Counted from the stretch's first letter, positions 5,790 through 10,894 are shown. The stretch: 64,000 nucleotides of DNA from Thermoleophilaceae bacterium (GCA_040901445.1 JBBDYQ010000004.1:133246-197245); one strand, 5' to 3'. Notes: generated by a model not told the origin, from the sequence alone. Translations and numbers: made by a program.

Positions 5790-5800
5790 GGGAATGGGTG
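5790..5800 (-). promoter_or_regulatory. CACCCATTCCC upstream motif, copy 1
   Basis: Reverse complement of gggaatgggtg. Exactly 30 nt separate it from ATG 5759. Confidence 0.5.
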
Positions 5801-5830
5801 AAAAGGTCCATTTCCGGCCGTGCGGGCCGC

Positions 5831-7183
5831 TCAGATGAGGCCGAGGGCGAGCATCGCCTCGGCCACTCGGACGAAGCCCGCGATGTTGGCGCCGGCCACG
5901 TAGTCGCCCGGCATCCCGTAGTCCGCGGCGGCCTCCGCGCAGGCGCTGTGGATCTCGCACACGATGTCGTGCAGCCGCTCCTCGGTGTGCTCGAACGTCC
6001 ACGAGTCGCGGGACGCGTTCTGCTGCATCTCGAGCGCGCTGGTGGCCACGCCGCCGGCATTCACGGCCTTGCCCGGGCCGAAGGCCACGCCGGCGTCGCG
6101 AAACGCCCGCACGGCCTCGGGCGTGCAGGGCATGTTCGCTCCCTCGCCCACGGCCACCACGCCGCCCGCCACGAGCGCTTCGGCGTCGCGCCCGGTGAGC
6201 TCGTTCTGGGTCGCGCACGGCAGCGCCACCCGGCAGGGCACCTCCCAGACGCTGCGACCCGGCACGAACCGCGCAGGGCTGCCGCGCCGCCGGGCGTACT
6301 CCGAGATGCGCTCGCGCTCGACCTCCTTGGCCTCCTTCAGGAGCTCGAGGTCGATGCCCTGTTCGTCGTGCACGTAACCGGACGAGTCCGAGCAGGCGAT
6401 CACCCGGCCGCCGAGCTGCTGCACCTTCTCGATGGCGTAGATGGCCACGTTGCCCGCGCCCGACACCGCGACGTCGGCGCCGTCGAAGGACGTGTCCCGA
6501 GCCGCCAGCATCTCCTGCACGAAGTAGGCGCAGCCGTAGCCGGTGGCCTCCCGGCGCACCCTGGCGCCGCCCCATTCGATGCCCTTGCCCGTGAGCACGC
6601 CGGATTCGTAGCGGTTGGCGATGCGCTTGTACTGGCCGAAGAGGTAGCCGATCTCGCGCTGCCCAACGCCGATGTCGCCGGCGGGCACGTCGGTGTGCTC
6701 TCCCAGGTGGCGGTGGAGCTCTGTCATGAACGACTGGCAGAAGCGCATGGCCTCGCCATCGGAGCGGCCCTTGGGCTCGAAGTCCGCGCCGCCCTTGGCG
6801 CCGCCGATCGGCATTCCGGTGAGGCTGTTCTTGAACACCTGCTCGAACCCGAGGAACTTGACGATCCCGAGGTTCACGGTGGGGTGGAAGCGCAGGCCGC
6901 CCTTGTAGGGGCCCAGCGCGCTGTTGAACTCCACGCGGAAGCCGCGGTTCACGTGCACCTCGCCGCGGTCGTCGGTCCACGGCACGCGGAAGATCACCTG
7001 CCGCTCCGGCTCGCAGATGCGCTCGAGCAGCTTGGCCTCGGCGTACTCGGGATGCTTGGCCACCACCGGGCCGACGCTCTCGAGCACCTCGCGCACGGCC
7101 TGGTGGAACTCGGGCTCGGCCGGGCTGCGCCGCAGCACCACCTCGTAGACCTGCTCGAGCTTCTCGTCGAGGCGCGCCGTCAC
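5831..7183 (-). CDS. gdhA: NADP-specific glutamate dehydrogenase
   Basis: ORF 5831..7261. [35 protein letters not shown] is diagnostic. GTG 7183 overlaps the stop of the upstream small ORF (GTGA); ATG 7213 is the alternative. Confidence 0.9.
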
Positions 7184-7509
7184 GAGCGAACGGAATCGCG
7201 GGCGGCGGCGCATGCCGCCGCGGCCGCTTCGAGAGCGTGCGCGAAGTGCCGGAGGTTCCACGGGCCCGCCTCGGCCGCCTGCTCGCCGCCGGGAACCTCG
7301 CGCGCCTCCAAACCGGCGGCTTGGCGCTCCGCGTAGCGCGCCAAGGCGGCCACCGCCGACTCCACGTTCTTCAGCGCGATGTCGAGGTTCGGCGGCCTGG
7401 CCTTGGTGGCCACGGCGGCGAAGCCGAGCCGCTCGGACGCCTCCTGGAGGTCACCCGCGCCGGGGGCCCGGCGGCTCCGGGATGCCGTTCTCGCCTGCTG
7501 CGATTCCAT
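7180..7509 (-). CDS. Small Ala-rich protein, unassigned family A, copy 1 (109 aa)
   Basis: Tail of track ORF 7180..7710 starting at ATG 7509. High third-position GC. Its stop overlaps the gdhA GTG. Paralogous to 10926..11165. Confidence 0.5.
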
Positions 7510-7539
7510 GCGGTGAGGATCGCCGCGTCCGGCGGCTCC

Positions 7540-7550
7540 GGGAATGGGTG
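7540..7550 (-). promoter_or_regulatory. CACCCATTCCC upstream motif, copy 2
   Basis: Identical 11-mer, 30 nt from ATG 7509. The flanks are also similar to copy 1. Confidence 0.5.
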
Positions 7551-7651
7551 AAAAGGTGCAAGTCACAGGGCCCCGGTTCCCCTTGGTCCCCGTTGCCAAT
7601 CCCGCCCGCGGCGAGGCAATGCACATGTCTGGCGCCTGAACTGCGCACTGC

Positions 7652-7662
7652 CACCCATTCCC
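7652..7662 (+). promoter_or_regulatory. CACCCATTCCC upstream motif, copy 3
   Basis: Identical 11-mer on the + strand, 31 nt before ATG 7694. Confidence 0.5.
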
Positions 7663-7693
7663 GGACGGGGTCGGAGAGCCCAGACTAAGTGGC

Positions 7694-8753: not shown

Positions 8754-8756
8754 TCG

Positions 8757-9866
8757 ATGCCCCCGCGCGGACGCGATCCCTCGATCGAGCCCACAATGGG
8801 GGCCACGGTGTCCGTTCAGCGACCACTCCCCGCGCGAGCCGGCGCGCCCCCCGGGGTTTCGTCCAAGCGCGTGCCCGCGGCTTCACGCCAGGGTGGGGTC
8901 TCCCTGCTCTGGCGCCTGTTCGCCGCCAACGGCGCCGTGCTCGCCCTGGCCGTGCTCCTGCTGGCCATCACCCCGATCACGATCACCGCCCCGGTCGCCA
9001 CGCTCGAGCAGGTGTCGATCCTGCTGGTGGGGCTTGCCGTCATGCTCGCGATCGACCTCGTCCTGCTGCGGCGCGTGCTCTCTCCCCTGCACCGCCTCAC
9101 CGCGCTGATGCGGGCGGTGGACCCGGACCGGCCAGGCCGCAGGCTCGACGACGTCGCCCTGCGCGAGGCCGAGGTGGCGGAGCTCGCCGGGGCCTTCAAC
9201 GAGATGCTCGACCGCCTCGAGGCGGAACGGCGCGAGAGCGCGCGCGTGGTTCTGGCCGCCCAGGAGCGGGAACGCCTGCGGGTGGCGCGTGAGCTGCATG
9301 ACGAGATCGGCCAGACCCTGACGGCGGTGACGCTCAAGGCCGAGCGCGCCGCCGGCGGCGGGACGGCGGACCCCCACGAGTTTCACCGCATCGCGGACGA
9401 CATCCGGGCGAGCCTTGACGACGTGCGCCGGATCGCGCGCGAGCTGCGCCCCGAGGCGCTCGACGACCTCGGGCTGGTGAACGCCCTGATCACCCTCTGC
9501 GCACGGGTGGGCGAGCAGGGAGAGCTGCGCGTGCAGCGGCGCTTCGCAGGCGGCCTGCCCTCGCTCGGCCCCGAGGCCGAGCTGGTGGTGTACCGCGTGG
9601 CCCAGGAGAGCCTCACCAACGTGGTACGGCATGCGAAGGCCGCAAGCGCGACCGTTTCCCTGGGGCTGGAGGGAGAGGACGTCGTCCTGCGCGTGCGCGA
9701 CGACGGTCGCGGGCTTCCGGACGAGCTGCCAAAGGGCACGGCCGGCATCGGCGGCATGCGGGAGCGGGCCCTGCTCGTGGGCGGGGCGCTGGCCATCTCA
9801 TCCGAGCCCGGGAGGGGCACCGAGGTCGTGCTCGAGGTCCCGGCGGCGGCGGGGGAAGGCGCGTGA
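8757..9866 (+). CDS. Sensor histidine kinase (HisKA_3, NarX/DesK type) with two TM segments and a very short outer loop
   Basis: H-box RVARELHDEIGQTLTAV, ATPase motifs (VVRHA, DDGRG, GIGGMRERA). The N-terminus has two hydrophobic helices about 10 aa apart. Confidence 0.85.
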   Translation: MPPRGRDPSIEPTMGATVSVQRPLPARAGAPPGVSSKRVPAASRQGGVSLLWRLFAANGAVLALAVLLLAITPITITAPVATLEQVSILLVGLAVMLAIDLVLLRRVLSPLHRLTALMRAVDPDRPGRRLDDVALREAEVAELAGAFNEMLDRLEAERRESARVVLAAQERERLRVARELHDEIGQTLTAVTLKAERAAGGGTADPHEFHRIADDIRASLDDVRRIARELRPEALDDLGLVNALITLCARVGEQGELRVQRRFAGGLPSLGPEAELVVYRVAQESLTNVVRHAKAASATVSLGLEGEDVVLRVRDDGRGLPDELPKGTAGIGGMRERALLVGGALAISSEPGRGTEVVLEVPAAAGEGA

Positions 9867-10522
9867 CGGTTCCCCTCAAGACCAGGGTCCTGCTCGCGGA
9901 CGACCACGAGGTGGTCCGCAGCGGCCTGCGCATGGTCATCGACACCGTGCCCGACCTCGAGGTGGTGGCCGAGGCTTCCGACGGCGCCGAGGCGGTTGAG
10001 CGGGCGCTGGCCGAGGACGTGGACCTGGCCGTGCTCGACGTGTCGATGCCGCGCATGACCGGGCTGCAGGCCGCCGCCGAGCTCACGCGCCGCAAGCCCG
10101 ACATCCGCGTGCTCATGCTCTCGATGCACGACAACGAGCGCTACTTCTTCGAGGCGCTCAAGGCAGGTGCGTCCGGCTATGTGCTGAAGACCGCTGCGAA
10201 CCAGGATCTCATCGAGGCGTGCCGCGCGGCGATGCGCGGGGAGCCGTTCCTCTACCCGGCCGCCCTCACGGCCCTGATCCGCGACTACCTCGAGCGCGCC
10301 CGCAGCGGCGAGGAGACGCCCGAGGACCCGCTCAGCCCGCGCGAGCTCGAGGTGGTGAAGCTGATCGCCGAGGGCCACACGAGCGAGGAGATCGCGGAGA
10401 TGCTCTTCATCAGCAAGAAGACCGTCGATCGTCACCGCGCAAACATGCTCGAGAAGCTGGGCATGCGAAACCGGGTGGAGCTCACCCGCTACGCGATCAG
10501 GCGTGGGCTCGTGGAGCCCTGA
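9863..10522 (+). CDS. NarL/LuxR-family response regulator
   Basis: Receiver domain (VLLADDHEVVRSGL..DLAVLDVSMP) plus LuxR HTH (LSPRELEVVKLIAEGHTSEEIAEMLFISKKTVDRHRANMLEKLG). GTGA overlap with the kinase gene. Confidence 0.9.
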   Translation: MTVPLKTRVLLADDHEVVRSGLRMVIDTVPDLEVVAEASDGAEAVERALAEDVDLAVLDVSMPRMTGLQAAAELTRRKPDIRVLMLSMHDNERYFFEALKAGASGYVLKTAANQDLIEACRAAMRGEPFLYPAALTALIRDYLERARSGEETPEDPLSPRELEVVKLIAEGHTSEEIAEMLFISKKTVDRHRANMLEKLGMRNRVELTRYAIRRGLVEP

Positions 10523-10847
10523 CCGCCTCGGCGTTCTCGGACACGGCCGGCGAGAGGCCCAGCAACTCGAGCTCCTCGAGCAGCCACTGCAACCGCCGGG
10601 CGTGATCAGGATGGCACCGGAGCTCGACCGTCCATCCGCCCGGGTGCCGGCGAACGCTTGCGTCCTCGCAGGAGCCTTCCTCCTCCATTCTCAGGACACG
10701 GCGGAACAGCCACGCGTCGACCTCCTTCACCTCGGTCGCATCGCTGGCCTGGCAGCGGACGAGCAATCTCTCCATGGACGCCATCCTGGGCGGTCCCCAG
10801 GGGTGGCGCCATGGGTTCAATGGTGCGTTCGGAGGGGGGACGAACAT
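10497..10847 (-). CDS. Small protein, unassigned family B, copy 2
   Basis: Part of track ORF 10497..11105. ATG 10847 follows GGGAGG. ATG 10775 (MERLLVRCQ..) aligns better with the copy 1 N-terminus. The 3' end overlaps the regulator gene by 26 nt (convergent). Confidence 0.5.
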   Translation of the reverse strand: MFVPPPNAPLNPWRHPWGPPRMASMERLLVRCQASDATEVKEVDAWLFRRVLRMEEEGSCEDASVRRHPGGWTVELRCHPDHARRLQWLLEELELLGLSPAVSENAEAVRAPRAHA

Positions 10848-10868
10848 GCATGGGCCTCCCGACCCCCC

Positions 10869-10879
10869 GGAGATGGGTG
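10869..10879 (-). promoter_or_regulatory. CACCCATCTCC upstream motif, copy 4 (variant)
   Basis: Reverse complement of ggagatgggtg, 21 nt from ATG 10847. Forms an inverted pair with copy 5. Confidence 0.4.
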
Positions 10880-10884
10880 ACACA

Positions 10885-10894
10885 GACCATTCCC
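10885..10894 (+). promoter_or_regulatory. GACCATTCCC upstream motif, copy 5 (one C shorter)
   Basis: 31 nt before GTG 10926, the same spacing as copies 1-3. Confidence 0.4.

Follow-up and report, generated by a model that had tools for sequence, protein, structure and literature searches.

This report concerns a stretch of 64,000 nucleotides from the genome of a Thermoleophilaceae bacterium (GCA_040901445.1 JBBDYQ010000004.1:133246-197245), referred to below as the window. It contains three exact copies of an 11-nucleotide sequence, CACCCATTCCC, each a short and nearly constant distance ahead of a start codon. The 11-mer consists of the promoter-proximal half-site, ACCCAT, of a palindrome with the consensus ATGGGT-N6-ACCCAT, joined to a -35-like hexamer, TTCCCG. 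The palindrome is probably the operator for a NarL/FixJ-family response regulator encoded beside it, which would act as a class II-type activator at leaderless promoters.

Genes at the locus

A block of genes on the plus strand runs from 7694 to 10522. Its first gene is B1 (7694-8038). Next come a small membrane protein of 63 amino acids (8026-8217), a universal stress protein, Usp (8217-8753), a HAMP/HisKA_3 histidine kinase (8757-9866), and the NarL/FixJ-family response regulator, which has Response_reg and GerE domains (9863-10522). Because these genes are contiguous or overlapping, the block from B1 to the regulator is probably one operon under the operator ahead of B1, here called O-B1. 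The only domains detected in the kinase are HAMP, HisKA_3 and HATPase_c, giving an input of the transmembrane (TM)-HAMP type. No GAF or other sensor domain was detected in it.

On the minus strand, A1 (7180-7509) overlaps gdhA (5831-7183), and the two probably form a single transcription unit (5831-7509). A gene for a Gre-family factor lies at 5229-5759 on the same strand. Among PDB entries its product matches Thermus Gfh1 best (E 1e-16), by a narrow margin over E. coli GreA, and it falls below every NCBIfam cut-off for GreA (106 vs 145). The gene is a divergent Gre-family paralogue, here called greA-like. Gfh1 of Thermus is an anti-cleavage, anti-GreA factor.

Two divergent genes are found beyond the regulator. 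B2 (10497-10847, minus strand) is a diverged paralogue of B1, and A2 (10926-11165, plus strand) encodes a small protein. The B2 reading frame runs toward the regulator gene and shares 26 nt with the 3' end of the latter.

A sequence-only reading of this DNA preceded the present analysis. Its gene assignments hold for the Gre-family protein, which it had called a GreA homologue, and for gdhA, Usp, the kinase and the regulator. A1 and A2 have no detectable similarity to each other, and they were rejected as paralogues.

Neither A1, A2 nor B1 has a match in Pfam or NCBIfam, and A1 and A2 belong to no known family. At least 805 homologues of the B family are found in metagenomes, each of them annotated as hypothetical and without a Pfam or NCBIfam match. 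The family has invariant residues W22, W57, E60 and R83, and an N-terminal IRCHP motif is near-invariant. An AlphaFold model of B1 (predicted local distance difference test score, pLDDT, 83) suggests a ferredoxin-like beta-alpha-beta-beta-alpha-beta domain with a disordered tail, and a Foldseek search with this model returned only generic ferredoxin-like folds (S6, EthD-like).

The repeated element

The exact copies of CACCCATTCCC lie at 5790-5800 (minus), 7540-7550 (minus) and 7652-7662 (plus). Base composition predicts about 0.04 copies by chance in the 64 kb (the G+C content of the window is 71-76%, and 72% was used for this expectation). The gap to the start codon is 30 nt for the greA-like gene (ATG 5759), 30 nt for A1 (ATG 7509) and 31 nt for B1 (ATG 7694). 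These positions and gaps had been reported in the sequence-only reading and were found again. A variant, GACCATTCCC, occupies 10885-10894, 31 nt upstream of GTG 10926 (A2), and another, CACCCATCTCC, occupies 10869-10879, 21 nt upstream of ATG 10847 (B2). The 9-mer CCATTCCCG has four copies in the 64 kb, all within 5.79-10.9 kb and each upstream of a start codon. With up to two mismatches allowed, the 11-mer occurs 11 times in the window against 13.9 expected, without enrichment, so the signal of the 11-mer rests on the exact copies.

The two variants had been described as an inverted pair. They proved to be both arms of one palindrome between divergent genes, and the copy on the B2 side is that palindrome, which serves A2, seen from its other face. 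Similarity between B2 and B1 begins only at Met25 of B2 (ATG 10775), and the 21-nt spacing of this fifth copy therefore probably has no meaning. The nearly fixed spacing that had been noted for four of the five genes stands, and the spacing of B2 is not comparable. The true start of B2 is probably ATG 10775 or 10784. B2 is a doubtful target of the common operator, since it would need a leader of about 55-65 nt.

Copies of this kind could conceivably be functionless, either left by a local duplication or repeated by chance. B1 and B2 are weakly paralogous, with GGGGTCGGRAGRCCC common to their spacers. The pattern GGGGTCGG(A/G)AG(A/G)CCC, which the sequence-only reading had noted downstream of its copies 3 and 4, belongs to the promoter spacers of B1 and B2. 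It is probably the trace of a local duplication, and it is not kept in orthologous B promoters. The spacers of the greA-like and A1 promoters, by contrast, are unrelated. Moreover, motif and spacing are retained where the proteins are only about 60% identical and the spacers have diverged, and they are retained throughout the class. Duplication or chance can therefore be given almost no weight as the source of the motif.

Organization of the operator and promoter

The four good copies have a common organization. Read toward the gene, CCATTCC is followed by 19 nt, a -10-like hexamer (nAnnAT), 6-7 nt, and ATG or GTG. The -10-like hexamer lies 17 bp past the -35-like hexamer. Numbered from the start codon, ACCCAT occupies -40 to -35, TTCCCG -35 to -30, and the -10-like hexamer -12 to -7. 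TTCCCG agrees with a -35 element at three of six positions. An inverted arm lies 6 bp upstream of ACCCAT and is imperfect: it reads ATGGAC at the greA-like gene, TTGCAC at A1, CTGCGC at B1 and ATGGGT at A2/B2. The functional unit is thus 18-20 bp rather than 11. Its consensus, ATGGGT-N6-ACCCAT, becomes a 7-4-7 arrangement once the flanking R/Y positions are included, and about 12 bases of the conserved core are specified.

The operator of the greA-like gene, O-greA, is ATGGAC-CTTTTC-ACCCAT at 5794-5811 (minus), with two mismatches and its proximal half-site at 5794-5799. It is kept in two related loci (L002 and L006) and has the top score, 36.1, with the position weight matrix (PWM) used for scanning. 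The -35-like hexamer of this promoter, TTCCCG at 5789-5794 (minus), overlaps the final T of the half-site, and TT(G/C)CCG is conserved at offsets 4-9. The -10-like hexamer AATGAT (5766-5771, minus) ends 6 nt ahead of ATG 5759.

The operator of A1, O-A1, is TTGCAC-CTTTTC-ACCCAT at 7544-7561 (minus), with a degenerate distal half and a perfect proximal half. It is accompanied by the hexamer GATCCT (7516-7521, minus), 6 nt ahead of ATG 7509. O-B1 is CTGCGC-ACTGCC-ACCCAT at 7641-7658 (plus), and its hexamer CAGACT (7681-7686, plus) is 7 nt ahead of ATG 7694. The common operator between A2 and B2, ATGGGT-GACACA-GACCAT, has two mismatches and occupies 10873-10890. It is assigned to neither strand. 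The hexamer CACCAT (10913-10918, plus) is 7 nt ahead of GTG 10926 of A2.

A -10-type hexamer about 10 bp before the start codon is generally taken as the mark of a leaderless gene, a type frequent among Actinobacteria (PMC3160421). All four window promoters have a hexamer of the TANNNT type at about this distance, but without the T at -12, and none has a Shine-Dalgarno-like GGAGG run within 15 nt 5' of the start. The mRNAs of the greA-like gene, A1, B1 and A2 thus appear to be leaderless, with the start codon at the predicted transcription start or 1-2 nt past it. If transcription does start at the start codon, the operator would be centred at about -43.5.

A generic sigma-70 promoter scan of 5200-11300 found no match. 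The consensus used in that scan is that of E. coli, from which these promoters are too distant. An Rfam search of 5000-11600 gave nothing above threshold and only three sub-threshold matches, all inside coding sequence. One of these, to the ASdes sRNA at 9879-9958 (plus; 24.9 bits against a gathering score of 40), falls inside the regulator gene and is most likely due to chance.

Conservation in close relatives

Among the few close relatives of the Gre-like protein is one, 61% identical, found on metagenomic contigs of about 1 Mb. In this relative (L002, 5964-10522) the genes are collinear, in the order B, histidine kinase, response regulator, A, gdhA, greA-like, ctaA, ctaB, and there is no Usp gene. 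In the window, unlike the relative, B1 through the regulator is inverted with respect to A1-gdhA-greA. Compared with the relative, the window has gained the Usp gene and the 63-aa membrane protein, and the operators have moved along with their genes.

The sequence CCCATTCCCG precedes the B, A and greA-like genes of the relative by 31, 32 and 30 nt, counted to the called starts. The 19-nt gap to an nAnnAT hexamer is retained despite diverged spacers. Identity between window and relative is 93% for the regulator, 77% for A, 62% for B and 61% for the Gre-like factor, and the recognition helix of the regulator differs by a single change, Met to Val. In a third lineage, 75% identical, the motif again lies ahead of the greA-like gene. 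The sequence-only reading had judged a chance origin unlikely, and the retention of motif and spacing in relatives with diverged spacers, as well as across the class, bears this out.

A class-wide palindrome

A search of representative genomes for the regulator gave 80 loci with 70-87% identity, which together comprise 1.43 Mb of sequence. Nearly all come from metagenome-assembled genomes of Thermoleophilia, namely Thermoleophilaceae, Solirubrobacterales and Gaiellales. With the close relative included, identity of the regulator across Thermoleophilia is 70-93%.

At 22 loci, every B-family gene carries aAATGGATa-N5-cACCCATTGcc, followed by gAcAAT and then ATG. Alignment of 25 promoters gives the consensus RRATGSAY-N5-YACCCATT(G/C)CCG. 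Of these promoters, 23 have A at -11, 23 have T at -7, and none has T at -12.

A test independent of alignment was made by counting ATGGGT-Nx-ACCCAT, with at most one mismatch and x from 0 to 12, over the 1.43 Mb. A spacing of six gives 76 sites, where about two are expected, and each other spacing gives 0-3. Perfect palindromes number 26. Neither direct repeats nor the everted arrangement, including the NarL-like 7-2-7, were enriched in the same sequence, and ACCCAT-N2-ATGGGT occurs once at up to one mismatch. Because the inverted repeat is specific in its spacing, it fits a dimeric helix-turn-helix protein and not the -35 box of a sigma factor.

The sites are concentrated around the regulator gene. 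Fifty-nine of the 76 lie less than 2 kb from it, a density of 1.89 against 0.16 per 10 kb, or about a 12-fold excess. B promoters account for only seven of these 59 sites, so the linkage to the regulator is no artefact of motif discovery. When PWM hits are included, a site lies no more than 3 kb from the regulator in 64 of 81 loci. The sequence-only reading had proposed the adjacent NarL-family regulator as a candidate binder, and the concentration of the palindrome beside its orthologues points the same way. At eight divergent or back-to-back positions, one palindrome is used in both directions.

Another reading assigns ACCCATT(C/G)CCG to an alternative sigma factor as its -35 element, in which case no activator would be involved. 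The fixed spacing to the -10-like element fits this idea, and a sigma-like protein with a weak Sigma70_r4_2 match is itself a recurrent target. The idea nevertheless leaves unexplained the second arm, which is enriched at a single spacing, and the palindromes that work in both directions. The motif is also limited to a few promoters beside one regulator gene. Promoters for extracytoplasmic function (ECF) sigma factors have a GGAAC-like -35 element and a CGT-type -10 element. The promoters described here lack such an asymmetric -35 and a CGT-type -10, and their nAnnAT hexamer is of the group 1/2 sigma type rather than the ECF type. An alternative sigma factor is thus very unlikely. The earlier reading had considered a promoter element with a short leader or none, serving as a class II activator site or as an alternative-sigma -35 box. 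The evidence supports the element and favours the activator site, and the spacing-specific palindrome speaks against the box.

A related candidate was considered on the opposite strand, where GGGAAT resembles a SigH/SigR -35 box. It was rejected, as no GTT is found at the required distance and transcription would run antisense into gdhA.

Register with the -10 hexamer and the start codon

The position of the operator relative to the promoter was measured at 88 sites independent of PWM construction. The pattern nAnnnT begins exactly 27 nt past the first C of CCCAT in 51 of the 88, and any other offset has 0-5 sites. In these 51 sites, the -10 hexamer thus begins 31.5 bp downstream of the operator centre. 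A start codon followed by a long open reading frame with high G+C at third codon positions is found at offsets 39-41 in 20 of the 88 sites, compared with 3.6% of random positions (p = 4e-11). Among all 118 PWM hits, the start-codon offset is 39 in 23, 40 in nine and 41 in five (37/118). The layout is that of a class II promoter, in which the site abuts or overlaps the -35 element, is centred between -41.5 and -43.5, and keeps a fixed register with the -10 element.

The exact register also bears on the main alternative, in which the same operator and the same regulator would serve repression. Binding from -52 to -35 would then keep sigma region 4 or the alpha C-terminal domain away from the -35 region, and the signal would either lift or impose repression. 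NarL-family regulators are able to repress, and the proximal half-site does abut or overlap the -35-like hexamer. In addition, perfect palindromes are found before pilin-like genes that have no normal nAnnnT hexamer, so that not every site resembles an activated promoter. A base-pair-exact register of operator and -10 hexamer, however, is needed by activators that contact polymerase and not by repressors. The -35-like hexamers are weak and the T at -12 is missing, which suggests dependence on an activator. The position is also that of activating NarL and DevR sites (PMC10853779, PMC3029386). Register, -35-like hexamer and the missing T together favour activation over repression. Repression is accordingly unlikely, though it is a serious competitor.

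Target genes

Counted by sites, the downstream families are led by the B family (17), followed by the Gre-like factor (11), type IV pilin-like genes (10), and sigma-like genes and the kinase operon (5 each). On closer inspection of the kinase operon, the site points into it at no fewer than 12 loci, and a further six have a phased site and a -10 hexamer just before the kinase gene. The B family is both the commonest neighbour and the commonest target of the regulator. Further targets are relatives of A1 and A2, Usp proteins, a small membrane protein, a CitMHS transporter and a DUF4389 protein.

Pilin-like targets have leaders of 27-42 nt and a conserved CGTTACT or CGTTAAA in the -10 register in place of nAnnnT. 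In Solirubrobacterales loci (L029-L068), perfect palindromes such as ATGGGTGTTAGCACCCAT are found about 550-650 bp downstream of the regulator, before pilin-like genes with an N_methyl motif. The sigma-like protein is about 180-260 amino acids long. Its operator lies at the leaderless register in L009 (14527), L028 (5168), L030 (7380) and L063 (4306). A sigma-like protein preceded by the operator suggests a regulatory cascade.

The relatives of A2 are targets in three loci (L007, L008 and L009). Immediately past A2 in the window, at 11412-14480 on the minus strand, is a gene for a 1022-aa protein with glycine/aspartate-rich repeats of calcium-binding type and a long poly-proline stretch.

Comparison with known systems

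The NarL heptamer has the consensus TACYYMT, and a 7-2-7 pair has the form TACYYMT-N2-AKRRGTA. The CACCCAT of the window fits the heptamer at six of seven positions, as the sequence-only reading had pointed out, and the TACCCAT of many orthologous sites fits at all seven. The arms nevertheless face the opposite way, as ATGGGTR-N4-YACCCAT with 4 bp between heptamers, and the 7-2-7 arrangement is unenriched, so the match is no evidence for a NarL-like specificity. The recognition helix of the regulator, KKTVDRHRANML, presumably differs from that of NarL. The regulator reaches none of the NCBIfam equivalog cut-offs (171 vs 300 bits for MctR). Its NarL score of 150.7 bits falls short of the cut-off of 250, and NarL orthology was rejected. 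Among PDB structures, VraR, NarL and DevR lie at roughly the same distance from it, the match to DevR being weaker than the other two.

A closer likeness to NarL is found in promoter architecture. The E. coli yeaR promoter is activated from a single 7-2-7 NarL site centred at -43.5, in a non-canonical class II manner (PMC10853779). The system described here likewise combines a NarL/FixJ-family regulator and a HisKA_3 kinase with a single palindrome that abuts the -35 element, and its centre would fall at the same position. It differs in that its promoters appear leaderless and its host is an actinobacterium.

Another comparison can be made with DevR of M. tuberculosis and OsdR of Streptomyces coelicolor. 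In DevR target promoters, the proximal site overlaps the -35 element (PMC3029386). OsdR has the box AGGGCCGATCGGCCCT and sites clustered around osdR (PMC5069765). Both are actinobacterial NarL-family regulators, and they share with the present system a GGG-N8-CCC palindrome, a proximal site over the -35 element and sites around the regulator's own gene. Autoregulation, which is only proposed here, and universal stress proteins in the operon or regulon are further likenesses. The boxes themselves differ, AGGGCCGATCGGCCCT compared with ATGGGT-N6-ACCCAT, and the Dev box consensus of M. tuberculosis does not fit either. The sensor kinases of DevS/DosT type have GAF domains, whereas the kinase here is of the TM-HAMP type. 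DevR binds cooperatively to tandem sites, whereas single sites are the rule here. The targets are also different, being the B family, a Gfh1-like factor and pilin-like genes.

The closest solved DNA-binding domain to that of the regulator is EsrB, which we take to be an SsrB-type regulator. SsrB of Salmonella recognizes 18-bp palindromes of 7-4-7 form that are degenerate, a single good heptamer being sufficient (PMC2837388). The window sites have the same 18-bp 7-4-7 form, with one well-conserved and one degenerate heptamer. SsrB, however, is a horizontally acquired virulence regulator that counters H-NS, and its sites have no fixed position in the promoter.

Literature searches found no description of this motif or system, only unrelated primer matches when the half-site sequences were used as queries, and no described transcriptional regulation in Thermoleophilia. 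The kind of mechanism is already known. What would be new is a two-component regulator with a predicted operator and regulon in a class without a described one.

Proposed mechanism

What is observed is the cis-element, a palindrome that is conserved, linked to the regulator gene, and in register with the -10 hexamer and the start codon. From these observations we infer the transcription start, the identity of the binder, and activation rather than repression. In the proposed mechanism, the kinase (8757-9866) would phosphorylate the response regulator (9863-10522), and a dimer of the regulator would bind the 18-bp palindrome centred at about -43.5. The bound regulator would then activate otherwise weak sigma-70-type promoters in a class II-like manner. 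This would switch on a small regulon consisting of the Gfh1/GreA-like factor, A1-gdhA, A2, and the operon from B1 through usp and the kinase to the regulator. Since O-B1 would drive the operon of the system itself, the result would be positive autoregulation.

Several points weigh against this mechanism. The distal half-sites in the window are poor, with 2-4 mismatches, and the palindrome at up to three mismatches is unenriched over the whole window. As the looser patterns of both 11-mer and palindrome are unenriched, the case within the window rests on the exact proximal half-sites. A site over the -35 element would suit a repressor just as well. Because the loci share ancestry, their counts are not independent events, and 17 of the 81 regulator loci have no site at the thresholds used. 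Finally, whatever else is conserved beside the regulator gene is linked to the sites in the same way.

This last point leads to the possibility that a different dimeric factor, encoded elsewhere, binds the palindrome, and that the two-component genes are near it only as part of a conserved neighbourhood. Binding by the adjacent regulator is, after all, our deduction. Sites also occur 3-8 kb from the regulator, ahead of Gre-like and sigma-like genes, and the loci without a detectable site could be explained in the same way. Against this, the density of sites drops 12-fold past 2 kb although the neighbouring targets vary by lineage (B family, pilin-like genes and others). No other DNA-binding protein was found consistently adjacent at the regulator loci, and an 18-bp inverted repeat is a typical target of NarL/FixJ-family dimers (PMC2837388, PMC5069765). 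Loss of the site also correlates with changes in the regulator. The loci without a site mostly hold the most divergent regulators, and a site is absent from 10 of 26 loci with an altered recognition helix compared with 5 of 48 (Fisher p = 0.007; the loci are not phylogenetically independent). A separate factor is thus distinctly improbable, less so than an alternative sigma factor and more so than repression by the adjacent regulator.

Significance

Thermoleophilia are actinobacteria abundant in soil, of which few have been cultured. For this class, the analysis provides a concrete hypothesis of regulator, operator and regulon, which specifies an 18-bp operator, its exact register within the promoter and the targets that are conserved. 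It also adds support for leaderless, activator-dependent promoters in Thermoleophilia. Two uncharacterized conserved targets are brought to attention, the B family and the Gfh1-like Gre factor. In the latter case, a factor of the secondary channel of RNA polymerase appears to be under two-component control.

A broader proposal, speculative and on balance unlikely, is that the two-component system is a class-wide switch for stress or dormancy that reprograms RNA polymerase, analogous to DosR and evolutionarily separate from it. If this were true, one operator at leaderless promoters would turn on a Gfh1-like factor, a sigma-like protein, universal stress proteins and the B family, and the B-family protein may then be a partner of the two-component system.

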